NCBI GenBank assembly: GCA_034432445.1
Contig: DAOUBX010000124.1
Span: 8,571-72,570, forward strand
DNA from: Anaerolineales bacterium
GTDB lineage: Bacteria > Chloroflexota > Anaerolineae > JAAEKA01
DNA: 64,000 nt
Direction: 5' to 3'
Shown: positions 3,390 to 24,064 of the stretch, in pieces
How the letters are laid out: the number at the start of each line of letters is the position of its first letter
Numbering within the stretch: position 1 is the first letter of the stretch
Made by a program: the position numbers and the translations under genes
Notes under the pieces: model-generated
Seen by the model: only the letters and a program-made list of their open reading frames with translations
What the model was told of the DNA's origin: nothing
Databases searched by the model: none

Positions 3390-4640
3390 GTGGCTGTTCT
3401 CGTCATCTTGTCGCTTCTGGCCGGCTGGCTCGGCGTTGAACCGCCAAGTCAGGCGCAAGAGGCGCCGACCACCGACCCCGCAGCGGCCGCCGTGCAGCCC
3501 AGCGCGGCCAGCGAAAACTGGATCCGCGTGGGCTACATCGTCTACGCCTACGGCGGTTCCTGGGAGCAGTTCACCCAGCTTTTTGACGGCACCTACACGC
3601 ACATCATCTCTGCCTTCTACATCCCCGACACAGCGAGCAACCTAAGCCCTGACGCCGCTACTGAAACCTTCACGCCGGACCTGCGCGCCCAGGCCCAGTC
3701 TGCGGGATCGAAGGTGATGTTCTCCATCGGCGGCGGCACGGTGCACTACACCGTCTACGTGGCCATCGCTGACGACCCCACCGCGCGGCGGAACTTCATC
3801 AACAACACCATAGGCTTGCTGCAGAACGGGGGTTACGACGGCGTAGACTTCAACTTCGAGGGCTGGGATAGCACCATGGACGAGACGCACCGGGACAAGG
3901 TGCTTGGGCTGATGTCGGACGCCACCATCGCCGTGAAGGACGCCAACCCCGCCTACGTCACGACCTCTACCATCGCTGCGCTCTACTGGATCAACCTGAG
4001 CAACGACTGCAATCTGATCAACTCGCCGCAGATGGACTTCGCTCACCACATGGGCTACTCCTTCGGCGGCGGCCCGAACGGCCCCTGGCGCGCGCCGGGC
4101 ACCATCCAATACGTGTGGCCGGGCACGGAGTACACCGAACGCTCGGTCTACGGCGCACTGACCTATCTGCAGGGCAAGGGCTGCAATATGGCCAAGATCA
4201 CCGGCGGCCTGCCCTGCTACGCCACAAACCAGCAGCCCTGGAACAATGTGCGCAACGCAGCCAACTGGCCCAGTGTCCCCTTGCACCCCGACTACCTGGA
4301 GAAAAAGCACCCCCACGCAGAGGTACTGGGTCAACGACCCCGACGCCGTATCAGCCAAAGTGGCGGCCTACCGCAACTTCGGCTTGGCCGGCGCGATGGT
4401 GTGGCAGGTGGGCCACGAAGGACCGGCGCGCGATCTGAGCGCCGCGCTGGTGGGCGGCGCGCCGCCTCCCACGCCCACGCCCGGCACGCCGACCGCCACG
4501 TCTACGGCTGTACCACCTCCGACGGTAACGCCCACGCCAACCTCTACCGCCACCCCGCCGCCCACCCCGGTGCCGACGCCCACCCCGACCTACACCGTCA
4601 CCCCAACGCGTAGCGCTACGCCGACGCACACAATGACGCC
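3390..4640 (+). CDS. GH18 chitinase-like secreted protein with Pro/Thr-rich linker, interrupted by a frameshift near 4290-4320 (possible pseudogene or sequencing indel)
   Basis: A signal peptide is followed by the GH18 catalytic motif YDGVDFNFEGWD in frame 0 (3390-4613). The GH18 C-terminal motif YWVNDPDAVSAKVAAYRNFGLAGAMVWQ and the PTPTPGTPT...linker are in frame +1 (ORF 4246-5010). The frame switch coincides with the aaaaag/ccccc homopolymer runs at about 4296-4312. Confidence 0.6.
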
Positions 4641-4684
4641 GCTTCGTAGGCTTCGACGACTGCGCGGACGAGCGAACCTGGTCG

Positions 4685-5983
4685 ATGGCGGAGATCGAGG
4701 CGTTGAAAAGCGCAGCTGCGGTCTTGGGCGCGGCCTTTGCCCGTCAGCGCGCAGAGATGGCGGAGCGTCAACAGCGCCTGCTGGCCGAAACCCTGCGCGA
4801 CACCGCCCTGGCCCTCACCAGCACCCTCAGCTTCGAGGAGCTGGTCGATCGCGTGTTGGCCAACGCGCAGCGCTTGGTGCCCAGCGACGCGGCCAGCATC
4901 TTCTTGGTGGAGGGGGATGTGGCGCGCGTGGTGCGCACACGCAGCTATGCCGAGCGCGGACTGGAAGAGATGACGCTGTCCATGGCTTTCCGCATCGCCG
5001 ACAACTATAACCTGGCCACCATGGTCGCCACCCGCCAGCCGTGCATGATCCGCGACGTGTGGGCGGTAGACGGCTGGCTTGACCTGCCCACCTCACACTG
5101 GATAGGCTCGTATTTGGGCGCGCCGATCGAGATAGACGGGGAGGTCATCGGTTTTCTGAATCTGGATTTTGCCGAGCGCGACGCGGTGCCGCCTGAGGGC
5201 CCCCGGCTGTTGCAAGCCTTCGCTGCCCAGGCCGGCGCCGCCTTGGCCAACGCACGGCTTTACCAAGCCCTGGAGGCCCAGGTTGATCGCGCCCGGCAGC
5301 TGACCCTCGACCTGATGCGCGCCCAAGAGGCCGAGCGCCAGGTAGTGGCCCGCGAGCTGCATGACGAGATGGGCCAGGCCTTGACCGCGCTGCAGCTGAA
5401 CTTGGGCGCGCTGCACCGCAGCCTGGCCGGCGCCGCGGACGCCCGCAGCCTGGAGCGCCTGGCCGAGGCGCGCTGGCTGGCCGAAGAGACGCTCGGCCGC
5501 ACGCGCGCGCTATCGCTGGACCTGCGGCCGCCTGCGCTGGACGACCTCGGCCTTGTCCCCGCGGTTCGCTGGTATTTGGATCAGTTCGGTCAACGTAGCG
5601 ATCGAGTGGTGAGCTTTCACGTCAGCGGGGAAGAGCAGCCGATACCTCCGGCTACGGCGCTGGCTCTTTATCGCATTCTGCAAGAAGCCACTACCAACAT
5701 CGGCCGTCATGCGCACGCCGGCCGCGTGGACGTGACGCTGGACTGTGTCGCCGACGCTGTGCGCCTGCAGATCAACGACGACGGGCAGGGCTTCGATCTG
5801 GCGGCCCTGGAAGCGGCCGGCAGCCTGCACCGCAGCTCCGGGCTGCTGGGTATGCGGGAGCGCGCGGCTGCCTTGGGCGGCGAGTGTGTTATCTCTTCGC
5901 AGCCCGGCCATAGCACGCGCGTACACGTGCGTATTCCGGTGGTGGAGACGACACGAATTGTTGCCCATAAGAGTAACGGCTGA
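4685..5983 (+). CDS. GAF-domain sensor histidine kinase (HisKA_3 + HATPase_c, NarL-type partner)
   Basis: It has a GAF-like N-terminal region, the H-box ARELHDEMGQALTAL, and N/G boxes (ILQEATTNIGRHA, DDGQGF, GLLGMRERA). Confidence 0.85.
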   Translation: MAEIEALKSAAAVLGAAFARQRAEMAERQQRLLAETLRDTALALTSTLSFEELVDRVLANAQRLVPSDAASIFLVEGDVARVVRTRSYAERGLEEMTLSMAFRIADNYNLATMVATRQPCMIRDVWAVDGWLDLPTSHWIGSYLGAPIEIDGEVIGFLNLDFAERDAVPPEGPRLLQAFAAQAGAALANARLYQALEAQVDRARQLTLDLMRAQEAERQVVARELHDEMGQALTALQLNLGALHRSLAGAADARSLERLAEARWLAEETLGRTRALSLDLRPPALDDLGLVPAVRWYLDQFGQRSDRVVSFHVSGEEQPIPPATALALYRILQEATTNIGRHAHAGRVDVTLDCVADAVRLQINDDGQGFDLAALEAAGSLHRSSGLLGMRERAAALGGECVISSQPGHSTRVHVRIPVVETTRIVAHKSNG

Positions 5984-6345
5984 TGAAAGTTAAGAAAATG
6001 CTCCGGCAATAGCCGCTTGCGGCGGGTCGCCCCTTATGTGAGCCTGCCCGGCGACACCTGCACTTGCAGCGCAGATGCAAGTGTGAATCGACCGGGCTAT
6101 CAAACGGCGCCCCGTCAACGGGGCTGAAAGACGCGCCATGCACGCGCGAGCCCGTTTCAACGGGCGCTGCTATGTAGCCGGGGAACTTCATTCCCCGGCG
6201 AGATAGCATGAGGGCGAGCTCCGCTCCATTGCCGGAATATTATCTTAAGCTTCATAAGCCGTTACTACGAAGGAGTGGCGCGTGCAGGTACGCATTCCGG
6301 TGGCGGAGACGACACGAATTGCTACGTACAAGAGTAACGGCTGAA
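5921..6345. repeat. Two ~60-bp near-identical direct copies of the kinase gene 3' end (5921-5983 and 6281-6345) flanking a ~300-bp palindrome-rich insert
   Basis: Both copies encode R-V-H/Q-V-R-I-P-V-V/A-E-T-T-R-I...K-S-N-G-stop and are identical at about 50 of 60 nt. The insert between them carries the hairpins CACTTGCAgcgcagaTGCAAGTG, GCCCCGTcaaCGGGGC, GCCCGTTtcaACGGGC and CCGGGGAacttcattCCCCGG. Confidence 0.7.
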
Positions 6346-11010: not shown

Positions 11011-13458
11011 ATGCCGGGGAAGCGGATAGCTAGGTGGTTAGGGATCGGCGGCATCGTGCTGCTGATCGTGCTAGCGGCAGTGCTCTTTTTCAGCCAAACT
11101 CAGCGCGGCCAGCCCGCTGCGCCGAGCCAGGCCGCGCCGCTGCCGGTGGTCACGGCGCCGGTGGAGCTGCTGGCCATGCCCGACGCCGGCAGCGCAGCAC
11201 TGCTGCAGGCCATCGACACCGCCGAGAGCAGCATCCGCCTCAAGATCTACCTGATCACCGATGAGGCCGTGGTGGAGGCATTGGGTCGCGCCGTGCAGCG
11301 CGGGGTGAACGTGCGCGTGCTGATCGAGGAGGCGCCCTACGGCGGCGGGGAGACCAACGCGCTGGCGACACAGGCGCTGCAGTCCGCCGGCGTGGACGTG
11401 CGCGGCCGGCCGGGCGTCTTCGTCTACAGTCACGAGAAGAGCCTAGTGGTGGACGACCGCCGCGCCTTCATCATGACGCACAACTTGACCCGCTCTTCCT
11501 TTGAGCGCAACCGAGAGTACGCGGTGATCGTCGACGATCCGGCCGTGGTGACGGAAGTGGCGCGGGTGTTCGACGCCGACTGGGAGCGCATCGAGCCAGA
11601 CCTGAGCGGGGCGCAGCTGGTGTGGAGCCCGGTCAACAGCCGGCCGCGCATCGCCGCCTTGATCGACAGCGCCCGAGTCAGCCTGGACGTGCAGCACACG
11701 TCGCTGCAGGACCCGGAGCTGATCGGCCGGCTGGCCGCCGCAGCCAGGCGCGGCGTCAGCGTGCGCGTGACCACGCCGGCCATCTACGACCCCGCCGAGT
11801 CGGAGTACGGCGCCATCGACGAGCTGTTTGCCGCCGGCGTGGCCATTCGCTTCCTGGACGAGCCCTACGTCCACGCCAAGGCAATGATCGCCGACGGCCG
11901 GCTGGCCATGGTTGGCTCGCAGAACTTGACCACCAACTCGCTGGAGAACAACCGCGAGCTGGGCATTATCTTCGACGACGCGGCCGCGGTGAACCAGTTG
12001 GCCGGTTACTTCCTGCGCGATTGGAACGCCGCCAAGCCGTGGGCCGGCCCGCAGCCCACGGCCACGCTGCCGGCCGGCGACGTCCTGCGCTGGGACCAGG
12101 TCGCCGGCTACGTGGGCCAGACCGTGACCGTCGAAGGCGATGTGATCGACACTTACGACAGCGGCAAGGTCACCTTTCTCAACTTCGACGAGGACCGCAC
12201 CTTCACCGTCGTGATCTTCGCCAGCGCTTACCCGGCCTTTCCTCAGCCGCCGGAGGACCTGTACTATCGCAAGCGGGTGCGGGTCACCGGCCAGATCAAG
12301 CTTTATCAGGACCGGCCGGAGATCATCGTCGAGTCGCCGGAGGCCATCGAAGTGGTGGCGGACCTGCTGGCGACGCGTGGCCAGCCACCGCCTACGCCTC
12401 CGGCCGACGGCGTGATCGACTGGCGCGAGGCCGGCCAGTACATCGGCCAACGGCTGGCCGTCGAGGGCGACGTCGTGCGCGTCTATAACAGCGGCAAGGC
12501 CGCCTTCCTCAACTTCGCGCAGGACTACCGCGGCCAGTTCTCGGTCGTGATCTTCGCCTCCGACTTCGACCGGTGGCCGCAGCCGCCCGAGCAGGTCTAC
12601 CTAGGCCAACGCGTGCGGGTGTCGGGCAAGATCAAGGAGTACCAGGGCGCGCCGGAGATCGTGGTCGAGTCGCCGGAGCAGATCGACATCCTGGGCCCGG
12701 CGGCAACGGCCACGCCGGATGCCGTGGCAGCCGAGCGGTCGGCGCCGGTCGACCTCGCCATCACCGTCCCGCCCACGGCCACCCTGCCCATCTCGTCCAC
12801 CGCAGCCATCACGCCCACCGCCAACCCCACACCCGCCGCCACGGCTACGCCGCTTCCGGTCATCCCCTGGCAGCAGGCCGCGGCCTACGAGGGCCAGGAG
12901 GCCACGGTGGAGGGCGTGGTGGTGGACAGCTACAAGTCCAACTCGGTGATCTTCCTCAACTTCAGCGAAGACCGCAGCGCCTTCAAGGCCGTGATCTTCC
13001 GCCGCGATTGGAGCAAGTGGCCGCAGTCGCCGGAGCTGCTGCTGCGGGGCGCAACGGTGCGCGTCAGCGGGCCGGTGCAGCTCTACCAGGGCGCGCCGGA
13101 GATCATCGTCGACGACCCGGCGCAGATCGAGGTCGTTGCCCCGCCGCCCACGCCCGCCGCGCCGCCGCCCTCGGCGCCCGTCCCCTGGCAAGAGGCGGCC
13201 GCCTACGCAGGTCAACGCGTCACGGTCGAGGGCGTGGTGGTGGACACCTACAAGTCGGACAAGGTGATCTTCCTCAACTTCGGCCCCCGCCGCAGCGACT
13301 TCAAGGTCGTGATCTTCGCCAGCGCCTGGGATCGTTGGCCGCAAACGCCCGATGCGCTCTACGACGGCAAGCGCCTGCACGTCACCGGCCAGGTCAAGCT
13401 CTACAACGGCGCGCCGGAGATCATCGTGGACGAGCCGGGGCAGATCGGTGAGCGGTGA
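11011..13458 (+). CDS. membrane-anchored phospholipase-D-family (2x HKD) protein with four C-terminal tandem OB-fold (BOF/tRNA_anti-like) repeats; putative extracellular nuclease
   Basis: An N-terminal TM helix is followed by two HxKx4D motifs (HEKSLVVD, HAKAMIAD...GSQN). Four ~95-aa repeats W..A.Y.GQ.VTVEG.V...Y.S.K..FLNF...F..VIF...WPQ.P..Y.G..V.V.G.I..YQGAPEI.V..P.QI are separated by PT-rich linkers. Confidence 0.75.
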   Translation: MPGKRIARWLGIGGIVLLIVLAAVLFFSQTQRGQPAAPSQAAPLPVVTAPVELLAMPDAGSAALLQAIDTAESSIRLKIYLITDEAVVEALGRAVQRGVNVRVLIEEAPYGGGETNALATQALQSAGVDVRGRPGVFVYSHEKSLVVDDRRAFIMTHNLTRSSFERNREYAVIVDDPAVVTEVARVFDADWERIEPDLSGAQLVWSPVNSRPRIAALIDSARVSLDVQHTSLQDPELIGRLAAAARRGVSVRVTTPAIYDPAESEYGAIDELFAAGVAIRFLDEPYVHAKAMIADGRLAMVGSQNLTTNSLENNRELGIIFDDAAAVNQLAGYFLRDWNAAKPWAGPQPTATLPAGDVLRWDQVAGYVGQTVTVEGDVIDTYDSGKVTFLNFDEDRTFTVVIFASAYPAFPQPPEDLYYRKRVRVTGQIKLYQDRPEIIVESPEAIEVVADLLATRGQPPPTPPADGVIDWREAGQYIGQRLAVEGDVVRVYNSGKAAFLNFAQDYRGQFSVVIFASDFDRWPQPPEQVYLGQRVRVSGKIKEYQGAPEIVVESPEQIDILGPAATATPDAVAAERSAPVDLAITVPPTATLPISSTAAITPTANPTPAATATPLPVIPWQQAAAYEGQEATVEGVVVDSYKSNSVIFLNFSEDRSAFKAVIFRRDWSKWPQSPELLLRGATVRVSGPVQLYQGAPEIIVDDPAQIEVVAPPPTPAAPPPSAPVPWQEAAAYAGQRVTVEGVVVDTYKSDKVIFLNFGPRRSDFKVVIFASAWDRWPQTPDALYDGKRLHVTGQVKLYNGAPEIIVDEPGQIGER

Positions 13459-13470
13459 ACAGTGAACGGT

Positions 13471-13512
13471 GAACGGGGGGGGAATATGCGGAGACTATTT
13501 GCCCCCCCGTTC
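13471..13512 (+). terminator. G8/C7 hairpin immediately downstream of the PLD-family gene stop
   Basis: GAACGGGGGGGG-19 nt-CCCCCCCGTTC forms an 11-bp stem. There is no U-tract. Confidence 0.4.
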
Positions 13513-13560
13513 CGCGCCTTCAAAGGCTTTCCCATCGGCCAGGACGAGGCGATCAATGGC
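13505..13560 (+). repeat. fragment copy (about 87% identity over about 45 nt) of the ~180-bp element that is complete at 14083-14262
   Basis: ttccgcgccttcaaaggctttcccatcggccaggacgaggcgatc here versus ttccgcgccatcgaaggcttccccatcagcgaggacgaggccatc at 14207-14251. Confidence 0.55.
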
Positions 13561-13658
13561 CCACCGGTGCGTCAATAGCCGGCGTGGCTGCGCAGACGTG
13601 CGGCGACCGGCAAGCTTGGCTTCAAATCGAGGCGGTGTCTTAATCGCCTTGACGACCA

Positions 13659-14009
13659 ATGGACATCAGCCACAAAAAAGGTACTGCGATGTTGTCACCC
13701 GAAGATCGTAGCGTAGCGAGAGCCTTCAAACGTCGCCTGCAACGAATCAGCCCCGTGTTGGACATGCGGGTCTATGGCTCACGCGCGCGCGGCGATGCCG
13801 CCCCAGACTCGGACCTGGACATTTATATCGAGATGGAGAGCGTCACACCTCAACTGCGCCGCCAAATCAGCGAGTTGGCCTGGGAGGTTGGCTTGGAGCT
13901 GGATCGGGTGATCTCGACCTTGGTGGTGACGCGTGAGCAGTTGGAGCATGGCCCGATGGGCGTCAATCCGATCATCCTCAACGTCCAGGCGGAGGGAGTG
14001 TCGCTGTGA
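13659..14009 (+). CDS. minimal nucleotidyltransferase (MNT/MntA-like, NTP_transf_2)
   Basis: The 116-aa protein has the GSRARGDAAPDSDLDI motif (GS-x9-DxD). Confidence 0.8.
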   Translation: MDISHKKGTAMLSPEDRSVARAFKRRLQRISPVLDMRVYGSRARGDAAPDSDLDIYIEMESVTPQLRRQISELAWEVGLELDRVISTLVVTREQLEHGPMGVNPIILNVQAEGVSL

Positions 14010-14350
14010 ACGAAGATCAGCTGCGCGACCTGCTGCGTTACCGTATGCGCCAGGCTGACGATAGCCTCCGCTCTCAATCGCACGCCATGCCCCAACAACT
14101 CCCCCTCCTCGCCGAAGAACGCGCTACCTACATCACTCAACGCGACGACACTGAGCGCACAGACGCCGTCGAGCGCCTGCGCGCCAAGCTGTTCGCCCCC
14201 ACCTTCCGCGCCATCGAAGGCTTCCCCATCAGCGAGGACGAGGCCATCCTGGCGCTGTCCGACCCACCGCACTACACCGCCTGTCCCACTCCCCTTCTGC
14301 CGCAGATCGTCGATCGCCGGAGGAGGGAACGAGCTTGGGCGTTGGTCTGA
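14006..14350 (+). CDS. small ORF overlapping the MNT stop (GTGA); possible MNT partner, but no clear HEPN Rx4-6H motif; spans the repeated ~180-bp element
   Basis: There is a 4-nt overlap with the upstream gene. The protein is low-complexity at both ends. Residues 29-87 are encoded by the element repeated at 13505 and 15400. Confidence 0.35.
   Translation: MNEDQLRDLLRYRMRQADDSLRSQSHAMPQQLPLLAEERATYITQRDDTERTDAVERLRAKLFAPTFRAIEGFPISEDEAILALSDPPHYTACPTPLLPQIVDRRRRERAWALV
14083..14262 (+). repeat. ~180-bp element (complete copy) recurring downstream of each TA cassette
   Basis: It begins cgccATGccccaacaactcccc and ends gcgctgtccgac. Partial copies are found at 13505-13560 and 15400-15535. Confidence 0.55.
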
Positions 14351-14363
14351 TCGGTGCTATAAT
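14335..14363 (+). promoter_or_regulatory. sigma70-like promoter for the AbiE-like pair
   Basis: TTGGGC-17 nt-TATAAT lies 50 nt upstream of ATG 14414. Confidence 0.4.
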
Positions 14364-14413
14364 CCGTCTGCCGGCAGCCGCGCCGGTATCCCAGAAGCAA
14401 ACGCCGATCAGCC

Positions 14414-14716
14414 ATGACTAGCGCCAGCATCCCCGGCGGCCTGTGGCCGCACTTCCAGGAATACGATCCCGCTCACTTGGACCGCGACCAGGACGCCGAC
14501 CTGATCATCCAGCGCACCCTGGAGTATGGCACGTGGGAGGAGGTCCGCTGGCTGTTGGCGACCTACGGCGTAGAGCGCACGCGCCAGTTCCTGCGCCTGC
14601 ACGGTGAGCGGCTGCTGTCGGCTGCGGCTTTCACCTACTGGCGCAAGCTGCTGGGTGTGCGGCGTTGGCGCCGTTCGCCGTTTGCGCAGGAGGCCCGGCA
14701 GGTATGGCCCTATTGA
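14414..14716 (+). CDS. small protein upstream of and overlapping the AbiEii-family gene; putative cognate antitoxin/partner
   Basis: The 100-aa protein has the W..FQEYD...LDRDQDADLIIQRTLEYGTWEEVRWL motif. Its stop overlaps the start of the next gene by 13 nt. Confidence 0.5.
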   Translation: MTSASIPGGLWPHFQEYDPAHLDRDQDADLIIQRTLEYGTWEEVRWLLATYGVERTRQFLRLHGERLLSAAAFTYWRKLLGVRRWRRSPFAQEARQVWPY

Positions 14717-15378
14717 CGCCCCACTGGGAGGCGCTGACACCCGACACGCGCGCAGCGTTCCACCTGGCCGCCGGACTGCCTTTCATCCGGCGCTACTACC
14801 TGGCCGGTGGCACGGGGCTGGCGTTGCACCTCGGCCATCGCTTTTCGGTCGATCTCAACTTCTTCTCCCCTGCCGCCGATGCCGTCGGGCCGGACGAACG
14901 TGCAGCAATGCAAGCGGCTTTTGCCAATCCGTCTTTGGTCATCACCCACGACAAGGACATGACCTTCGTCGCCACCTGGCAGGGCGTGGGGATTAGCTTC
15001 TTCCGGCTTGCGCTCTATCCGTTGGTGCAGGAGCCGCTCTTGCTGGAGGGCGTGCCGGTTGCCACCGTCGAGGAGATCGGCGCAATGAAGTTGGCGGCCA
15101 TCATGGCGCGGGGAACGCGTAAGGACTATGTCGATCTGTACTTCATCTTGCAGCGCACGCCGCTAGAGCGCCTGTTCGAGGTGGCGACTGTCAAGTATGC
15201 TCCGGTGCGCGCCTTTGCCGTCAGCGCCGTGCGCGCCATGACCTACTTCGTCGACGCTGAGGCCACCCCGATGCCCCAGATGATCGCACGCGCGTCGTGG
15301 ACAACCATCAAACGCTTCCTGGAACGCCAAGCCTTGGAGGCCGGCCGCCAGCACTTGGAAGACTTGTGGCCACAATAG
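14704..15378 (+). CDS. AbiEii/AbiGii-family nucleotidyltransferase (type IV TA toxin family, DUF1814)
   Basis: YLAGGTGLALHLGHRFSVDLNFF and KLAAIMARGTRKDYVDLYFIL match the family signature. Start chosen at ATG 14704 (MALLTPHWEAL); the ORF-track start at 14665 is less likely. Confidence 0.75.
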   Translation: MALLTPHWEALTPDTRAAFHLAAGLPFIRRYYLAGGTGLALHLGHRFSVDLNFFSPAADAVGPDERAAMQAAFANPSLVITHDKDMTFVATWQGVGISFFRLALYPLVQEPLLLEGVPVATVEEIGAMKLAAIMARGTRKDYVDLYFILQRTPLERLFEVATVKYAPVRAFAVSAVRAMTYFVDAEATPMPQMIARASWTTIKRFLERQALEAGRQHLEDLWPQ

Positions 15379-15399
15379 GCTCGTTGCCGGCCGCGCGTG

Positions 15400-15535
15400 C
15401 TTCCGCCATGCCTCACCAACTCCCCTCCTCGCCGAAGAACGCGCCACCTACACCACCCCACGCGACGAGACCGACCGCGCGGCCGCCATCGAACGCCTGC
15501 GCGCCAGGCTGGCCGACCCCACCTTCTGCATCATG
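15400..15535 (+). repeat. decayed third copy of the ~180-bp element (1-nt and 25-nt deletions relative to 14083-14262)
   Basis: atgcctcaccaactcccctcctcgccgaagaacgcgccacctac...gaggccatcctggcgctgtccgcc aligns with copy 2 but is out of frame. Confidence 0.6.
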
Positions 15536-15654
15536 AGGCCATCCTGGCGCTGTCCGCCCCGCTGTACGGATGGGCGCTGCCGGAGCGACTGCCAGGCTGG
15601 CCGGCAGGCTAACAGCGCTAGTCCTCAGCCTTTGACCGATCAGCCCACAGCAAT

Positions 15655-17004
<1,350 letters not shown>

Positions 17005-17214
17005 GGGGACTAGCAGCGACGCAGGCAGGTCGCTCTCCTGCCACCCGCTGGTGATGGGCTACATGGCTGGCGGTTCCCTGGCCGGCCGCCTGTGCCGCGA
17101 GCAGCACTCTGGCCTCGGCTAACCGTGACGCCGTCAAGCGCCCGGGGGCCCGCCGACGATTCGTTTATTCGTGCCCCTATTCGTGGTAGTCCTCAACTGA
17201 GCTGAGGTGTCAAG

Positions 17215-17628
17215 ATGGCCGTACAACAAGTGACGATTCGTCTGCCCGAAACCCTGTATCATCAGGTCAAAGCACGCGCCCGACGCACGCAGCGCACGAT
17301 CGAAGATGAAGTGGCGGCTGTGGTTGCAGCAGCGTTACCGGAGCTAGGCGACCTTCCGCATCCGAGCTCCGACGAGATGGAGCAGATGGCTTTAATGACC
17401 GATCACGAGTTGTGGCAGGCGGCCCGAGCCACGATGACAGTGACCGAGAGTCGGCGTATGCAAGCGTTCTTGCTCAAGCGTCAAGGAGAAGGACTATCTC
17501 TAGATCAGGAGGCTGAAGCAGAGCAACTTGTGCGGCGCCAGGAGCGACTGGTGCTGATCCGCGCCCGGGCGGCGGCATTGCTGAAGCAGCGCGGGCATGA
17601 TGTGGCAGACCTGATGAAGCTCCAATGA
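17215..17628 (+). CDS. ribbon-helix-helix (CopG-like) protein with helical C-terminal domain paralogous to the 17830 protein
   Basis: The N-terminus VTIRLPETLYHQVKARARRTQRTIEDEV is RHH-like. The C-terminus AFLLKRQGEGLSLDQEAEAEQL...LIRARAAALL aligns with SWLLEANRERQLSPQEEEELDHY...LSLLKAKA of the next gene. Confidence 0.5.
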   Translation: MAVQQVTIRLPETLYHQVKARARRTQRTIEDEVAAVVAAALPELGDLPHPSSDEMEQMALMTDHELWQAARATMTVTESRRMQAFLLKRQGEGLSLDQEAEAEQLVRRQERLVLIRARAAALLKQRGHDVADLMKLQ

Positions 17629-17733
17629 GTCGTGCTGGTCAACGCAAGGCGCTTGTAGATCGAGGCAGGATGGTATCCCGCCGGGGAGGTCGGAGGCGTG
17701 ATCAAGTTCATACCCAAAGCAGGGTGGAGACAG

Positions 17734-17766
17734 TTGACTTGACCAGACAAAGATGAGTGCTATAAT
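17734..17766 (+). promoter_or_regulatory. near-consensus sigma70 promoter (TTGACC-16 nt-TATAAT) in an AT-rich patch
   Basis: ttgacTTGACCagacaaagatgagtgcTATAATgacg lies 60 nt upstream of the 17830 start. Confidence 0.5.
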
Positions 17767-17829
17767 GACGTTAAGCCATACTGGGTTTTACGGACGGCAG
17801 CTGACCTGCGGATAGAACCGGAGCAACAC

Positions 17830-18081
17830 GTGACAACTACAGCATACTCCTTGCCTTTTTATGAGCAAGTGCTGGAATTCCTGGCGTCTGGGCCATCTTC
17901 CCAGGAAATCATGGCCTACAAGCCGCCAAAGGCGGCGCAAGCGCGCTTTAGCTGGTTGCTAGAGGCGAATCGAGAGCGCCAGTTGAGCCCTCAGGAGGAG
18001 GAGGAGCTCGATCACTACATTGCTATGGATCGCATGCTCTCTCTCCTCAAGGCCAAGGCTTCCACACGACTGGAGCAGTAA
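17830..18081 (+). CDS. small helical protein, paralogue of the 17215 C-terminal domain; candidate antitoxin/immunity partner of the HNH nuclease
   Basis: The 83-aa protein is 9 nt upstream of the HNH gene. Confidence 0.45.
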   Translation: MTTTAYSLPFYEQVLEFLASGPSSQEIMAYKPPKAAQARFSWLLEANRERQLSPQEEEELDHYIAMDRMLSLLKAKASTRLEQ

Positions 18082-18089
18082 CCAAACCC

Positions 18090-18521
18090 ATGGCTCAGGT
18101 TTCCGCTCAGCTCCGCAACTTTGTTGCGGCCCGCGCCATGGAAAGCTGCGAATACTGCCTGATACATGCCGCCTACACAGCTTTTGCGCATGAGGTTGAT
18201 CACGTCATTGCACGTAAGCATGGTGGGGCCACTGAGCCAGATAACCTTGCCTTTGCCTGCGCCCAGTGTAATCGCTTCAAAGGGAGCGACATTGCAGCAC
18301 CGGACCCAGTGAGCGGAGACATTGTCACTCTTTACAACCCAAGAACGATGAATTGGGGGGACCACTTTCGCTTGGATGAGCCGCGCATCATTCCTCTTAC
18401 TGCCTCAGGCCGAGCGACGGAACGCTTGCTCCAACTCAACCAGATCGATCGCCTGTTGCTGCGCAAGGAGTTGCTGGTCAAAGGGCGCTATCCGTTCTTT
18501 GCCGCCGGACACGCACACTAG
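18090..18521 (+). CDS. HNH endonuclease
   Basis: CEYC...HEVDHVIARKHGG...NLAFACAQCNRFKG is the HNH motif with its Cys ligands. Confidence 0.8.
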   Translation: MAQVSAQLRNFVAARAMESCEYCLIHAAYTAFAHEVDHVIARKHGGATEPDNLAFACAQCNRFKGSDIAAPDPVSGDIVTLYNPRTMNWGDHFRLDEPRIIPLTASGRATERLLQLNQIDRLLLRKELLVKGRYPFFAAGHAH

Positions 18522-18745
18522 GCATGCGATGACACCGTGGCTCGCCGGATCAGGCAACACATCCTCTGGCTCCGGCGACCGAGCGGCGCAATTGCAGGGC
18601 AAAGCGATTGTGTGCTACAATCAATGTCGGCAGGCGGTGCTCGAGAACACGGACGATACAGGCGCATACCATCGCCGTGGTTGAACTCTCCCCCTGCGCA
18701 CTAGCACAACTTCTGCCGACATCGTCAGGCTTCTGATGCTCTGCG

Positions 18746-19123
18746 TTGCGCGCAATAGGAGAGCTTATGGCTGTCTTGATGCAAGAATTACCAAGGCTGG
18801 GCAAGCTCGAAGTTGACGTCAAAGTGACTGCCGACGTCAACGTCACGGCCTTTTCAGCTCGCCAAAAGGTCGATAGCTTTGTGCTCAGCGAAATTAGCTA
18901 CATGATGCACGCTGGCGATCCAACGCTGGTTTTGGCCGACCACATCCTGTGGCGGGTGCCAGTCGTGTTGTCGCAAACGTCGCGCGGCGATGTCGGTGAA
19001 GTGGGGCACATCGATGTAGACATCGAAACGGGCCAATTGCTGGTTACACCTCAGATCGTTGCGGAGATCGAGACTCGTGCCGCAGCCATTGTTGAACGTT
19101 CCTCATCGCCAACAACAATCTGA
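18746..19123 (+). CDS. hypothetical protein (start uncertain; alternative Met at MAVLMQEL)
   Basis: The ORF overlaps the downstream peptidase gene; no recognisable motif. Confidence 0.35.
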   Translation: MRAIGELMAVLMQELPRLGKLEVDVKVTADVNVTAFSARQKVDSFVLSEISYMMHAGDPTLVLADHILWRVPVVLSQTSRGDVGEVGHIDVDIETGQLLVTPQIVAEIETRAAAIVERSSSPTTI

Positions 19124-19535
19124 CGGCGATTGCTTGGCCGCCTACGCAGCCATGGTGCTCAGCTACTGGGGACGCGAGATTTCTTACAGCTCGCTCTTGC
19201 GGCTGTTGCAGGTGCAACCTTATGGCGCACCCGCAGGCAACATCCGATTGCTGTCTAGTCTCGGTCTACGTGTCACCTATAGTACAACCAACCTGGCAGG
19301 CCTGCAATCGCTCCTCGATCAGGACAGTCCCGTAATCGTTTCCGTACGCACTGGGGAGTTGCCATACTGGGCCTACACGACCGATCATGCTGTCGTTGTA
19401 GTTGGATACGATGAAGGACACGTATACGTCAACGACCCTGACAGGTCCGAGTCTCCGATTATGGTATCAAGGGGTGACTTCGAGCTGGCGTGGCTAGAGC
19501 GCGACTACGCCTTTGCGTTGATCAAGCCGACCTGA
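19059..19535 (+). CDS. papain-like cysteine peptidase, C39-like (Peptidase_C39_2/BtrH-like)
   Basis: [20 protein letters not shown] carries the Gln/Cys active-site motif; [19 protein letters not shown] supplies the His. Confidence 0.6.
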
Positions 19536-19539
19536 TCCC

Positions 19540-20775
19540 ATGACTGCACCCATGTCCCACGACATCGAACGCCTCATCCGCCCCGAGCTGGCCACCATGC
19601 AGCCCTACACGCCCATCCACCCCTTCGAGGTGGTGAGCCAGCGGCTGGGCCGGCCGCCGGAGCAGATCGTCAAGCTGGACGCCAACGAGAACCCCTACGG
19701 CCCCTCCCCGCGCGCCGTGGCGGCCATGGCCGGCTACCCCTGGCTGCACATCTACCCCGACCCGCAGAGCACGGAGCTGCGCGCCGCGCTGGCCGACTAC
19801 ACCGGCGTCCCGGCCGAGCGCATCCTGGCCGGCAGCGGGGCGGACGAGCTGATCGACCTGCTGGGCCGGCTGCTCTTGGCCCCCGGCGACGCCCTGATCG
19901 ACTGCCCGCCCACCTTCGGCATGTACGCCTTCTGCGCGGCGGTCAACGGCGCCTGTCGCATCGACGTGCCGCGGCGGGCCGATTTCTCCGTCGACGTGGA
20001 CGCCATCGAGCGCATCATGGACGCCGAATCGGACGGCGGCTACGACGAGTGGGCGTGGCTGGACAACGTGCAGGTCGATTGTGGGGAGGGGGCTCACTAC
20101 GTCTCCTCCGAGGATGGCTATTCGACCCGCGGACAGCATGGTTTTCCCCGGCCCAAGCTGCTCTTCCTCTGCTCTCCCAACAACCCGGACGGCGGGCTGC
20201 TGGCGCCGGCCGATCTCGAGCGCCTGCTGCGCCTGCCGCTGGTGGTCGTGGTAGACGAGGCCTACATCGAGTTCGCCCGGCCGGGTGCGTCCTTTGTCCC
20301 CTGGACGGCCGAGCACGACAACTTGGTGATCCTGCGCACCTTCAGCAAGTGGGCGGGGCTGGGCGGGCTGCGCGTGGGCTATGGCGTGTTTCCCCCGGCC
20401 ATCATCGAGCAGCTTTGGAAGATCAAGCAACCCTACAACGTCAACGTGGCCGGCAGCCGCGCCGCTATCGCCTCGCTGGCCGACCGCAATTACCTCCTGG
20501 GCAACGTGGCCAAGCTAGTAGCCGAGCGGGAGCGGCTCTACGCCGAGCTGGCCCGCTTCGACTTCCTCCAGCCTGTGCCCGGCAGCCAGAGCAACTTCAT
20601 CCTCTGCCGCGTCGTCGGCCGCGACGCCCGCCAGCTCAAGCTCGACCTGGAACAGCAGGGCGTGCTGGTGCGTCACTTCGCCAAGCCCGGCGTGGACAAC
20701 TGTGTCCGCATCAGCGTGGGCCGGCCGGAACAAACTGATGTGCTGCTAGAGGCGTTAGCCAGAGTTGGCCTGTAA
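19540..20775 (+). CDS. hisC: histidinol-phosphate aminotransferase (with an ~50-aa insertion)
   Basis: …[12 protein letters not shown]…[12 protein letters not shown]…[18 protein letters not shown]… contains the PLP-lysine motif. Confidence 0.9.
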
Positions 20776-20822
20776 CCCCCTCATCGCTCGTCTTCGCGCT
20801 CGATCTCAGGTACAGATAGCCC

Positions 20823-20984
20823 CTAACAGATCTTTCTGGCGAGCTTGTCGGGTATCTTGCTGTGGCGCGGCACCGCTTCGATTTGGCCGGTCAGGGGATT
20901 GACCCACAGCGAGTGCGACCGTCCCTCCCGCTTCAGGTAACACCCATGCCTGCGCAAGTGGCGCAACAGCTCGTGGAGTTTCAT
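20823..20984 (-). CDS. hicA: HicA-family mRNA interferase toxin (53 aa; not in ORF track)
   Basis: The reverse translation reads MKLHELLRHLRRHGCYLKREGRSHSLWVNPLTGQIEAVPRHSKIPDKLARKIC. Its start overlaps the hicB stop (ATGA). Confidence 0.75.
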   Translation of the reverse strand: MKLHELLRHLRRHGCYLKREGRSHSLWVNPLTGQIEAVPRHSKIPDKLARKIC

Positions 20985-21196
20985 CCGACGGTGACCGTAG
21001 CCCGGATGGCTTCGTTCGGGACGCCGCGCAGGCCGTCTTCCCGGCGGTCGGACAAGATCAGGTCAACTGCGTCAGCCAGGCTCTGCAGACACTCTTCGTA
21101 GGTGCGCCCAAGGCCGTTGGCGCCGGAGATCTCCAGACAATAGGCGACGTACCACGGTCCATCCCGTTCGACAATGGCAGTGAACTCATTTTTCAT
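20981..21196 (-). CDS. hicB: HicB-family antitoxin (UPF0150)
   Basis: MKNEFTAIVERDGPWYVAYCLEISGANGLGRTYEECLQSLADAV matches the HicB N-terminal fold. Confidence 0.75.
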   Translation of the reverse strand: MKNEFTAIVERDGPWYVAYCLEISGANGLGRTYEECLQSLADAVDLILSDRREDGLRGVPNEAIRATVTVG

Positions 21197-21298
21197 GGTC
21201 TTTGTTCCTTAGCAAGAAACTAGTCAAGCGCTGCTAGTGCGATTATACTTGAGTTCAGCAGTCGGGCAAAGGCAGGCCAAAGCACAGGACGACCGAGA

Positions 21299-21889
21299 AT
21301 GATCACACGGCAGGCAACCATCTCCCGCACCACCAAAGAAACCTCCATCGAGCTCAGTCTGGCCATCGACGGCAACGGCCAGGCCGACGTGCACACCGGC
21401 ATCGGCTTCTACGATCACATGCTGACGCTGTTCGCCGGCCACGGGTTGTTCGACCTGCGCGTGGCGGCCAGCGGCGATTTGCACGTGGACGAGCACCACA
21501 CGGCCGAGGACGTGGCCATCTGCCTGGGCCAGGCGCTGGACCGGGCGCTGGGCGACCGCGCCGGCATTGTGCGCACGGCCCACAGCTACGTGCCCATGGA
21601 CGAGGCGCTGGGCTTCGTCGCCGTGGACCTGGGCGGCCGGCCCTACTGCGTCTTCGACGCCGACTGGCGCACGCCGCGGCTCGGCGGGCTGGGCACCGAC
21701 CTCATCGGCCACATCTTCGAGACGCTGGCCGTGCATGGCCGGCTCAACCTGCACGCGCGCGTGCTCTACGCCCGCAACGACCACCACGCCTGCGAGGCGC
21801 TCTTCAAGGCGCTAGGCCGCGCCCTGGACGCGGCCACGCAGATCGATCCCCGTCGTCACGGGGTGCCATCCACGAAAGGCACGCTCTGA
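21299..21889 (+). CDS. hisB: imidazoleglycerol-phosphate dehydratase (monofunctional)
   Basis: …[14 protein letters not shown]…[15 protein letters not shown]…[11 protein letters not shown]…. Confidence 0.9.
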
Positions 21890-22512
21890 TGGTCCCAACA
21901 TTGCCGCCGTCCCCTTCGTCCCCTCCCTCACCGACCGGCGGCGCAGCCCCAATCTACAGCGGTCAATGGCTGGCCTGGCCCGATGTCCGTGACTACCGCG
22001 CCGCGCAACTGGGCGACATCCTGGCCGAGCGGCTGGTGTGGTCCGCAACAGCCGGCCTGTTACACCGCGGCGGTGTGACCATCGCCGGCCCGGCCTACAT
22101 CTGGTTTCGCTTTTGGCTGCCGCGTGACAGCCAGGTGGTGGAAAAATACTTCGACGCCCAAGGACAGACGCTGGGCATGCAAATCGACGTGTGCATGCCG
22201 TTGGCAGCTCTCCCCGTCCACCTGCGCACCGGCCCGTTTGCCGCCGCCAAAGAGCCGCTGGCCGGCTGGTTTACCACCAACTTGCTCCTAGACATCTGGA
22301 TCACCGCCGATGGCCAGGTGACTGTGCGCAACGAGGCCGCGTTTGAGCAGGCGGTGCGCGCGGGCGCGCTGAGCGAGGCAGAGGCGGCTTGGGCCGAGGA
22401 GCGGGTGCGCACGCTGACCTCGGCCATCGCCCGGCGTCGCTTTCCGCCGGCGCTGGTGCGCAACTGGCAGGTCGACTTGCGCAGAATTCAGGAGACCCTA
22501 TCACCCTCATGA
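21889..22512 (+). CDS. DUF402-like (FomD/Ntdp-fold) protein, translationally coupled to hisB and hisH
   Basis: ATGA-type overlaps at both ends (21887-21891 and 22509-22512). The pattern YIWFRFW...YFDAQG...MQIDVCMP...NLLLDIWITADGQVTVRNEAAFEQAVRAGALSEAEAAWA resembles the DUF402 core, but the acidic DLDLD/DEDE positions are only partly conserved. Confidence 0.4.
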   Translation: MVPTLPPSPSSPPSPTGGAAPIYSGQWLAWPDVRDYRAAQLGDILAERLVWSATAGLLHRGGVTIAGPAYIWFRFWLPRDSQVVEKYFDAQGQTLGMQIDVCMPLAALPVHLRTGPFAAAKEPLAGWFTTNLLLDIWITADGQVTVRNEAAFEQAVRAGALSEAEAAWAEERVRTLTSAIARRRFPPALVRNWQVDLRRIQETLSPS

Positions 22513-23159
22513 TCGCAATCATCGACTACGGCATCGGCAACTTGCGCAGCGTGGAAAAGGCCTTCGTGCACGTCGGCGCCGACGCGCGGCTGACGGCCGA
22601 TCCCGCCGCGATCCGCTCTGCCGCCGGCGTCGTTCTGCCGGGGGTGGGCGCGTTTGGCGCCTGCGCGTTGGGCTTGCGCCGCGCCGAGTACGACGCCCTG
22701 GTGCTGGAATTGGCGGCCGCCGGCCGGCCGCTGCTCGGCATCTGCGTGGGCATGCAGCTTCTCTTCGAGGAGAGCGAGGAGATGGGCCGGCATGCGGGTC
22801 TGGGCTTGTTGCCCGGCCGCGTGCTACGCTTTCCGGAGGGACAGGTAGACTCAGCCGGTGCGCGCCTCAAGGTGCCGCAGATCGGCTGGAACCAGCTTTG
22901 GCACGACGAGAGCGACCCCTTGCTGGCCGGTGTGCCCAGCGGCAGCTACGCTTACTTCGTCCACTCCTACTACTGCGCGCCGGCGAACCCGGCCGATGTG
23001 GTTGCCACGACGGACTACGGCTTCCCCTACGCCTCCGTAGTCCATCGAGACAACCTGTGGGGCGTGCAGTTCCACCCCGAGAAAAGCCACACCGTAGGGT
23101 TGAGGATCCTGCGCAACTTTGTGGACGCGGTAATCGCTGATCGATTTGCCGACAGCTAA
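22509..23159 (+). CDS. hisH: imidazole glycerol phosphate synthase, glutamine amidotransferase subunit
   Basis: MIAIIDYGIGNLRSV…GICVGMQLLFE…VQFHPEKS carries the Cys-His-Glu triad motifs. Confidence 0.9.
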   Translation: MIAIIDYGIGNLRSVEKAFVHVGADARLTADPAAIRSAAGVVLPGVGAFGACALGLRRAEYDALVLELAAAGRPLLGICVGMQLLFEESEEMGRHAGLGLLPGRVLRFPEGQVDSAGARLKVPQIGWNQLWHDESDPLLAGVPSGSYAYFVHSYYCAPANPADVVATTDYGFPYASVVHRDNLWGVQFHPEKSHTVGLRILRNFVDAVIADRFADS

Positions 23160-23203
23160 TCTTGCGGTTATACTCCCCCAGGTAGGCACGGATTCCGCGC
23201 GAG

Positions 23204-24064
23204 GTGGTTGGCGACTTGAGCTCACGCCCTTCATTGACCGATGTGCTGAAGGCCGGCATCCTGCGGCCGCCCAAACGACCGGCGACGCTGGCTGGCCCAA
23301 CTGCGCCAACGCCGCTCAAGCAGCGTTTGCAGGCTTTCCAAATCGAGCTGCTGACCGCGGACTACACCGACTTCACCAGCCAGCCCCGCTACAAAGCGCT
23401 GCTGCACTTTTTCTTCAGCGCGCTCTACGCGCCGCAGGACTTCAGCCTGCGCAACGCCTCCTTCCGCACGCTGCACGACTGGCTGGTGAGCCTGATCGGC
23501 CATGACCCGGTGCGCGTGCTGGCGCAGGCCATCGAGCTCAACGACCTCACCGAGTCGCTGGACGACGACATGGTGATCGCCCTGCGCACCCTGGGGGTGA
23601 GCGACGCCCTCACCGTGGACGAGTGGGAGCGCGCCTATCGCCTGGTGGATCGCCGCAGCGACCGCATCCGCCAGGTCGAGATGCTGGTGCAGATCGGCAA
23701 AGTGCTGGATCAAGTGGCGGCCGTGCCGTTTGTAGACGTGCAGCTGCGCGCCGTGCGGCCGGCCGTGGCGCTGGTTGGCTGGGAGCACGTGATCGACTTC
23801 CTGGTGGAGGGCTACCGGGCCATTCGCACGGCCCGGCCCATCGACCAAGCGTTGAACGCGATCCACGAGCGCGAGCTGGCGCGCATCGATCGGCTGCTGC
23901 CCGCTGATCAGCCGCGTGCGACTGCTAGGCTGTTTTCTCCCACTCCTGCGGCCGATGACAGCACGAACGCCTTGCGCAGCAACGACGGCGCAGACGCCGC
24001 GCGATCGGCCGGTAGCGCCTACGCCACAATATCCGACAGGGACAAGGATATCCCCACACCATGA
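23204..24064 (+). CDS. hypothetical protein (GTG start uncertain); stop overlaps the start of the next gene (ATGA)
   Basis: The ORF shows coding-like GC3 bias and is translationally coupled to the M24 peptidase gene. Confidence 0.4.
   Translation: MVGDLSSRPSLTDVLKAGILRPPKRPATLAGPTAPTPLKQRLQAFQIELLTADYTDFTSQPRYKALLHFFFSALYAPQDFSLRNASFRTLHDWLVSLIGHDPVRVLAQAIELNDLTESLDDDMVIALRTLGVSDALTVDEWERAYRLVDRRSDRIRQVEMLVQIGKVLDQVAAVPFVDVQLRAVRPAVALVGWEHVIDFLVEGYRAIRTARPIDQALNAIHERELARIDRLLPADQPRATARLFSPTPAADDSTNALRSNDGADAARSAGSAYATISDRDKDIPTP

Follow-up and report, generated by a model that had tools for sequence, protein, structure and literature searches.

A probable insertion hot spot between hisD and hisC of an Anaerolineales bacterium carries a mosaic of toxin-antitoxin-like gene pairs

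We analyzed a 64,000-nucleotide (nt) stretch of DNA from an Anaerolineales bacterium (Chloroflexota; GenBank assembly GCA_034432445.1, contig DAOUBX010000124.1), referred to below as the window, in which five open reading frames (ORFs) separate hisD from hisC in the his operon. A sequence-only reading had taken these genes for a single accessory island, reminiscent of a defense or conflict system combining a nuclease with a peptidase. Comparison with related loci shows instead a mosaic of three independent two-gene modules, one of them half-deleted, and not one five-gene unit. We consider it probable that the hisD|hisC junction is an insertion hot spot holding three co-oriented cassettes that resemble type II toxin-antitoxin systems, their toxic and neutralizing members being putative. 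The features on which this rests are listed by their window coordinates.

15655-17004, plus strand: hisD (PF00815, E=1.4e-150), left flank of the insertion.
17107-17186, unstranded: repeated, ATTCGT-rich non-coding stretch 5' of P1, recurring in a sister-strain contig (L183).
17215-17628, plus strand: P1, 137 amino acids (aa), with a FitA-like ribbon-helix-helix (RHH) N-terminus and a P2-like C-terminal domain; an orphan antitoxin-like gene.
17629-17682, plus strand: 3'-terminal remnant of a deleted HNH gene, 18 codons, directly past the P1 stop.
17679-18533, plus strand: swappable cassette of promoter, P2 and HNH, 855 nt, exchanged for 605 nt in L183.
17739-17766, plus strand: sigma70-type promoter of the P2-HNH cassette (TTGACC-16-TATAAT with TG extension, 11/12 matches).
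17830-18081, plus strand: P2, 83 aa, helical, a putative HNH-neutralizing antitoxin without a DNA-binding domain.
18090-18521, plus strand: HNH nuclease, 143 aa, PtuB-like, putative toxin (PF01844, E=6e-14), 9 nt after P2.
18592-18621, plus strand: weak promoter candidate for P4-C39 (TTGCAG-18-TACAAT, upstream TG), found by eye and under the threshold of the promoter tool.
18767-19123, plus strand: P4, 118 aa, alpha+beta, putative inhibitor or antitoxin of the peptidase (ATG start, AGGAG upstream).
19077-19535, plus strand: C39-like papain-fold cysteine peptidase, stand-alone, cytoplasmic, putative toxin (PF13529, PF03412).
19540-20775, plus strand: hisC (PF00155, E=1.4e-57), right flank, starting 4 nt past the stop codon of the peptidase gene.

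We scanned one genome per species for HisD and compared the Chloroflexota relatives at 50-70% identity. Fifteen related Chloroflexota loci have hisD followed by hisC after a gap of about 10-350 nt, usually with hisB next (contiguous loci: L007, L008, L010-L014, L018, L019, L023-L026; L011 and L024 show the hisC 5' end only). The two genes are thus normally adjacent, as the sequence-only reading had supposed, and this contiguity in relatives confirms that the five-ORF stretch is an insertion. The interval spans 2.5 kb, its ORFs are tightly packed in the same orientation, and the GC content of the island is 0.53-0.60 against 0.70-0.76 in hisD and hisC; the five ORFs, domain calls and low-GC patch reported earlier are all present. 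Promoter-like sites in the island region number three against 0.8 expected, no terminator-like site occurs in 16900-19700, and Rfam gave no match at E≤1 for 13000-24000. The window sequence is found again on eight short metagenome contigs with identical gene order. Searched at the DNA level for the entire island, plasmids gave no match, and the cassette borders inside the island show no convincing direct or inverted repeats of the kind that mark attC-like or transposon-like ends.

The mosaic structure emerges from close relatives. In a locus whose HisD is 90% identical (L094), only P4 and the C39-like peptidase follow hisD, about 130 nt on; in another (L095), the same pair is followed by hisC (81% identity). 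The sister-strain contig L183 encodes P1 and P4 at 90% and 98% identity to the window copies, and nucleotide alignment (blastn) shows 17183-17678 and 18534-19242 kept at 93-96% identity. Between these blocks the promoter-P2-HNH cassette is exchanged for a segment that codes for a ParE-like toxin (PF05016, marginally under the Pfam cut-off at E=3.6e-4) and a partner of 82 aa on the opposite strand. The peptidase gene of L183 carries a 227-nt internal deletion (window 19243-19469 missing; L183 position 2608). Of 32 metagenome P4 loci whose upstream sequence extends over 1.5 kb or more, none has P1, P2 or HNH; the exception is L132, in which P4 is immediately preceded by an intact RHH-HNH pair and the peptidase is frameshifted. 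Because P4-C39 stands alone in L094 and L095, the neighboring cassette is swapped in L183, and the 32 P4 loci lack P1, P2 and HNH, the nuclease-peptidase neighborhood is mostly incidental stacking. Gene linkage, proposed as a check on the sequence-only reading, is conserved within the P2-HNH and P4-C39 pairs and breaks down for the five-gene block.

P2 has 103 close clusters (49-99% identity), and its differences per codon position (0.27, 0.20 and 0.57) mark it as a real coding gene under purifying selection. By the empty Rfam scan, neither P2 nor the AT-rich patch is a known RNA. No Pfam, NCBIfam, PADLOC or PHROGs model matches the family; among 1.84 billion representatives, a profile search recovered a superfamily of 1731 representative clusters at E≤1e-3. 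On cyanobacterial plasmids encoding a P2-like protein (34-46% identity), an HNH homologue lies directly downstream in 16/16, and these nucleases are 47-54% identical to the window HNH over an aligned 75-94% of the query. An example is pCC7120alpha, with the P2-like gene at 64268-64642 and HNH at 64655-65068. In the two plasmids inspected, the annotated P2-like partner is 116-124 aa long with an N-terminal extension, and the plasmid pairs sit beside integrases. In L092, from another Chloroflexota genome, P2 is followed after 6 nt by an intact HNH gene, 68% identical to that of the window and missed by the gene caller. These comparisons support P2-HNH as a conserved two-gene module, and the small gene 9 nt before HNH, picked out in the sequence-only reading, is borne out as part of a recurrent pair. 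HNH matches 2.5-3 kb downstream of hisD in three Chloroflexales loci (L016, L020, L029) were discounted; L029, the one inspected, has an unrelated 170-aa HNH gene beside a 124-aa ORF in a different context.

The near-consensus promoter that had been read in the AT-rich patch is present, and in 6/9 Anaerolineae-type P2 loci, solo ones included, P2 is preceded at a distance of 48-80 nt by a TTGACC-16/18-TATAAT-like element. Solo P2 genes were found in L087, L089, L091, L179, L181 and L184; they are 60-89% identical, under purifying selection and often preceded by the same promoter-like element, and they adjoin other genes of toxin-antitoxin type (ParE_like, DUF4160/DUF2442). In the window locus itself (L001), the automatic call at 5979-6149 (window 17911-18081) yields a 56-aa P2 that loses 27 conserved residues.

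The window HNH protein scores 52.3 bits against PF01844 (cut-off 21.4) and retains the CxxC...CxxC zinc ligands, the catalytic His of the DH motif and the metal-binding Asn. Residues C20, C23, H38, N52, C57, C60, N61 and K64 are invariant among six sequences, the protein aligns with the Cas9 HNH motif E-x-DH...NL...C..CN..KG, and its C-terminal domain is conserved (NPR..W..HF...GRAT). The catalytic motif is thus intact, rather than degenerate as the sequence-only reading had allowed it might be. Its best profile relatives are the PADLOC PtuB models (E=1.6e-9), several of which span most of the protein, including the region past the HNH core. No PtuA-type ATPase is encoded between hisD and hisC, nor beside the homologous pairs in L092, L174, L177 and L187-L189. 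Contig L184 additionally carries, at 390-1234 and 3 kb from its solo P2, a 104-aa coiled-coil-like protein paired by a 4-nt overlap with a 177-aa HNH protein that has the same NPR...LN C-terminal motif; several unrelated proteins seem to serve as upstream partners of this HNH subfamily.

The 83-aa protein had been described as aligning with the C-terminal domain of the RHH protein, a relationship that pairwise BLASTP does not detect and that profile hidden Markov models (HMMs) recover in both directions. A narrow family-to-family comparison (hhalign) was weak (E=0.0028, probability 11%). The P1-family HMM matches P0374 (E=1e-19) and P0379 (E=1e-17) over their full length, and its matches to stand-alone P2-like proteins have E=1e-7 to 1e-5. 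Conversely, the P2-superfamily HMM matches residues ~72-121 of the P1 family, with about 30 best matches at E~1e-6 to 5e-5. Many members of the P2 superfamily are 115-140 aa long and carry the P2-like domain C-terminally, some of them with a P1-like RHH N-terminus (P0374, P0379), and an alignment (A6) shows a continuum between P1-type and P2-type proteins. At profile level, these matches confirm P2 as homologous to the C-terminal domain of P1. At one chromosomal position, flanked by a LUD_dom gene and nadC, L174 has an RHH-HNH pair (3526-4889) and the syntenic L179 (2770-3419) and L091 (4153-5550) each have a solo P2 gene; genes of the P1/P2 superfamily seem to substitute for each other at fixed hot spots.

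P1 itself matches FitA-like_RHH (E=5e-4) and Arc (E=3e-3) in the window copy, both below the Pfam cut-off. Its more than 200 homologues of ~137 aa include many with a precomputed PF22513 assignment, and they are often named 'plasmid stability protein' by JGI. In every context examined an HNH gene of 141-143 aa directly follows the P1 homologue, overlapping it by 4 nt in L174-176 and in L177 (on an 11-Mb contig), or separated from it by 4 nt in L132 and 5 nt in L189 (a Pseudanabaena plasmid); P1-type partners are also present in Sorangium genomes. These P1-linked nucleases share only 34-40% identity with the window HNH. The 18 codons past the P1 stop translate as VVLVNARRL*IEAGWYPA, which matches the C-terminus of the P1-linked HNH proteins (L174: MVLVNARRLWIEAGWHPP; L174 end: MVLVNARRLWIEAGWHPPDA) and scores 15.6 bits (E=2.6e-6) against that subfamily in hmmsearch. 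The homology between L183 and the window stops at 17678, at the end of this remnant. Because an HNH 3' remnant follows the P1 stop where homologues have an intact HNH gene, P1 is an orphan whose RHH gene was retained when nearly the whole downstream HNH gene was deleted, a feature the earlier reading had missed. Viral contigs scanned with the P1 and P2 alignments held no relatives, and PHROGs gave only generic matches for the HNH protein; neither search gave a sign of phage origin.

The P1- and P2-like proteins could instead be regulatory or specificity subunits that activate or target a two-component HNH nuclease in defense, restriction-like or homing roles, and not antitoxins. The PtuB-like character of HNH fits this, PtuB having a partner protein in Septu, as do the RHH-like DNA-binding N-termini of many partners and the location of pairs on plasmids beside integrases. 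We nevertheless regard it as unlikely: partners without RHH, such as P2, stay linked, so that DNA binding by the partner is dispensable, and the partner outlives the nuclease (orphan P1, solo P2), nuclease-only remnants not being seen, which fits a protective partner better.

The second conserved pair consists of P4 and the peptidase. The fourth gene had been given as 125 aa overlapping the peptidase gene; the overlapping pair is conserved, and the start of P4 is likely ATG 18767 rather than TTG 18746. The peptidase may alternatively start at TTG 19059, giving 152 or 158 aa, and with both starts the gene overlaps the P4 3' end, by 47-65 nt. Promoter-like sites stronger than that of the window lie upstream of P4 in L094, L172, L173 and L169. 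P4 has at least 261 homologous clusters, all of whose taxon-naming sources are Chloroflexi or Anaerolineae, and the P4-C39 pair was seen only in sequences attributed to Chloroflexota. Searches of Pfam, NCBIfam, PADLOC and PHROGs gave no family for P4, and the protein has no match among plasmids. An early AlphaFold2 model from 20 sequences was poor (predicted local distance difference test, pLDDT, 53); a model from 116 sequences reached pLDDT 72.5, with a helix, four strands and a C-terminal helix. Foldseek comparison of this model with the PDB gave nothing at E<0.07 and a sequence-profile search of the PDB no match; a cystatin/PepSY-like inhibitor fold is a lead only.

The peptidase scores 60.3 bits against PF13529 (cut-off 24, E=4e-16) and 48 bits against PF03412 (cut-off 22, E=1.5e-12). 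It starts right at the catalytic domain with no hydrophobic leader by eye, and Q19, C25, H110 and D126 show at least 95% conservation in a set of 40 full-length homologues and the window copy; the catalytic motif is intact. Here too the automatic call in L001 (7220-7603, window 19152-19535) is short, giving a 127-aa peptidase that loses Gln19 and the catalytic Cys25; public annotations of the P2 and peptidase families are likely truncated. Of 58 metagenome loci with enough sequence downstream of P4, 39 have a full-length peptidase overlapping the P4 end, 13 a truncated or frameshifted remnant and six P4 alone, so that 52/58 keep the peptidase or a remnant beside P4. In this P4-seeded sample, P4 remains an intact ORF in 17/19 loci with a degraded or absent peptidase. 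Independent deletions or truncations of the peptidase beside an intact P4 occur in L183, L106, L109, L110, L112, L114, L097, L111 and L119. Across 80 loci the pair has no recurrent neighbor, the largest other cluster occurring in nine loci at variable positions. Taken together, the comparisons support P4-C39 as a self-contained conserved pair.

C39 domains classically process double-glycine leaders, and the peptidase has weak matches to the peptidase domains of NHLP/bacteriocin ABC transporters and to ComA/PCAT structures. P4-C39 might on these grounds be a peptide-maturation pair in which C39 removes the leader of a bacteriocin or a ribosomally synthesized and post-translationally modified peptide, with P4 as substrate or chaperone. 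We hold this to be quite improbable. No ABC transporter is fused to or recurrent beside the pair in the 80 loci, and genomic contexts are scattered and variable; P4 is a highly conserved, folded protein without a GG motif or hypervariable core, and it is retained where the peptidase often decays.

That all five genes form one integrated defense or conflict system, with nuclease and peptidase acting jointly, is very improbable and largely refuted by the comparative data: the genes are co-oriented and closely packed, and RHH-HNH directly precedes P4-C39 in the second, unrelated contig L132, yet the related hisD loci, the L183 exchange and the 32 P4 loci all separate the modules, L092, L174, L177 and the cyanobacterial plasmids have a P1-HNH or P2-HNH pair but no P4-C39, and P1's own HNH partner was deleted.

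The explanation we favor therefore treats the hisD|hisC insertion as three toxin-antitoxin-like cassettes that have reached different points in their life cycle. The first would be a decayed RHH-HNH module, with P1 left as an orphan antitoxin and its HNH gene reduced to the last ~18 codons; the RHH domain of P1 would presumably serve autoregulation and its helical C-terminal domain neutralize the nuclease. The second would be the intact P2-HNH cassette with its own sigma70 promoter, P2 being a stand-alone version of the same helical domain, predicted to bind and inhibit a PtuB-like zinc-finger HNH DNase. Depletion of P2 would then let the nuclease damage DNA and arrest the cell, serving addiction or abortive infection. 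In the third, intact cassette, P4 would inhibit the overlapping, translationally coupled C39-like peptidase, which if unchecked would cleave an essential cellular protein. The pairs have the layout of type II toxin-antitoxin systems: small, adjacent, co-oriented genes, coupled or overlapping, that stay paired in varied chromosomal and plasmid contexts. Our assignment follows from this tight coupling of partner and enzyme, from the intact active sites and the mobility, from the exchange with a ParE-like cassette, and from the loss of enzymes whose upstream gene is kept. These natural "knock-outs", with the toxin gene gone and its partner kept, suggest the upstream gene as the protective one of each pair. 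The toxin-immunity module proposed for P2-HNH in the sequence-only reading thus gains conserved linkage and an intact nuclease motif, while toxicity, physical neutralization, the targets and any role in phage defense are predictions for all three cassettes.

Several observations weigh against this explanation. Solo P2 genes are the commoner state among the nine sampled Anaerolineae P2 contexts (six solo, two paired, and L180, with a 67-aa ORF after P2, counted in neither class), and the conservation of P2, at 60-99% identity, is unusually high for an antitoxin; P2 may act independently, for instance as an anti-addiction immunity gene or a regulator. Classical type II antitoxins usually carry a DNA-binding domain, and neither P2 nor P4 has a recognizable one. 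Binding within the P2-HNH and P4-C39 pairs is a prediction. The peptidase loci were found through P4, so peptidases without P4 were invisible and the asymmetry of decay is biased accordingly. Finally, an RHH-HNH pair adjoining P4-C39 recurs in L132, leaving a small chance that the HNH and C39 modules are linked in function or mobility.

A more speculative extension, to which we give less than even weight, concerns both intact pairs. P4-C39 could be an undescribed intracellular toxin-antitoxin or abortive-infection class in which a cytoplasmic C39 peptidase cleaves an essential host protein, as Cpe1 does, and is held in check by a cystatin/PepSY-like antitoxin. The P2-like domain (about 1,700 clusters) could be a dedicated inhibitor of PtuB-like HNH nucleases, with the solo copies acting as anti-addiction or anti-defense immunity genes.

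The surroundings of the insertion hold further small modules. A HicA/HicB-like pair lies on the minus strand between hisC and hisB (20823-21196), where relatives mostly have gaps of just ~20-80 nt, a DUF402 gene lies between hisB and hisH (21889-22512), and an NTP_transf_2 pair and a DUF6922-AbiEii cassette lie directly 5' of hisD; from these we conclude that the his region is generally invaded by small modules. A 60-170-nt segment in three ~83% identical copies (13495-13554, 14102-14272 and 15422-15567) brackets the NTP_transf_2 pair and the DUF6922-AbiEii cassette, its middle copy falling within a 114-aa ORF (14006-14350); it could be a target or recombination sequence duplicated by cassette insertion. 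The ATTCGT-rich segment of ~80 nt upstream of P1 recurs in L183, with two direct copies and one inverted (104-183, 222-249, 584-662; 85-93% identity), adjoining an ORF that looks GxxExxY-type by eye, and may be a small repeat element. A core biosynthetic operon thus tolerates repeated invasion by what appear to be selfish two-gene cassettes, here stacked side by side, swapped and in part lost over a span of a few hundred bases.

Several known systems share parts of this design. The best profile matches of the window HNH are the PtuB models of Septu and retron type I-A systems, but no PtuA-type ATPase lies beside it, its partner is instead a helical or RHH protein of 83-137 aa, and at 143 aa the window protein is shorter than the profiles of ~200-270 positions. 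If the pairs are indeed toxins and antitoxins, they could provide a naturally occurring protein that inhibits PtuB-like HNH nucleases. Among peptidase toxins, Tox-PLC39 of polymorphic toxins is a C39-like peptidase with an adjacent immunity protein, reported in Chloroflexi among others (PMC3482391), and Cpe1-Cpi1 pairs a papain-like peptidase toxin with an immunity protein, Cpe1 cleaving GyrB and ParE and being toxic in the cytoplasm (PMC12136450). The window peptidase shares with them the C39-related papain fold, the Cys/His/Asp triad and an adjacent gene for a small protein. It differs in being a stand-alone protein of ~150 aa without a secretion or delivery domain, and in that P4 lies upstream and overlapping, in toxin-antitoxin order, rather than downstream; a PDB sequence search detected no similarity to Cpe1 or Cpi1. 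With the C39 domains of PCAT and ComA it has in common membership of Pfam C39 and C39_2 and the conserved Gln/Cys/His/Asp, whereas it is predicted to be cytoplasmic and stand-alone, with no transporter or double-glycine substrate identified. The open-access literature held no equivalent of an RHH-HNH or HNH-toxin type II system or of a C39 toxin-antitoxin system, only Septu PtuB, the HNH and C39 domains of polymorphic toxins, and Cpe1. P2-HNH and P4-C39 appear in our comparisons as widespread pairs whose partner families have no model in Pfam, NCBIfam, PADLOC or PHROGs.

The closest parallel is with type II toxin-antitoxin systems that use RHH antitoxins (FitAB, ParDE, CcdAB). Shared with these are two small co-oriented genes with an overlap or short gap and the partner first, the build of P1-type proteins from an RHH N-terminus and a C-terminal partner-binding region, a patchy, mobile distribution that includes plasmids and the swap with a ParE-like cassette, and the occurrence of toxin deletions and orphan antitoxin-like genes. 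They differ in that P2 lacks RHH and no Pfam, NCBIfam or PADLOC model fits the shared helical domain, and in that the toxin candidate here is an HNH (beta-beta-alpha-Me) DNase in place of PIN, ParE or CcdB. Should their toxin-antitoxin nature hold, a DNase and a papain-like protease would join the repertoire of type II toxins.

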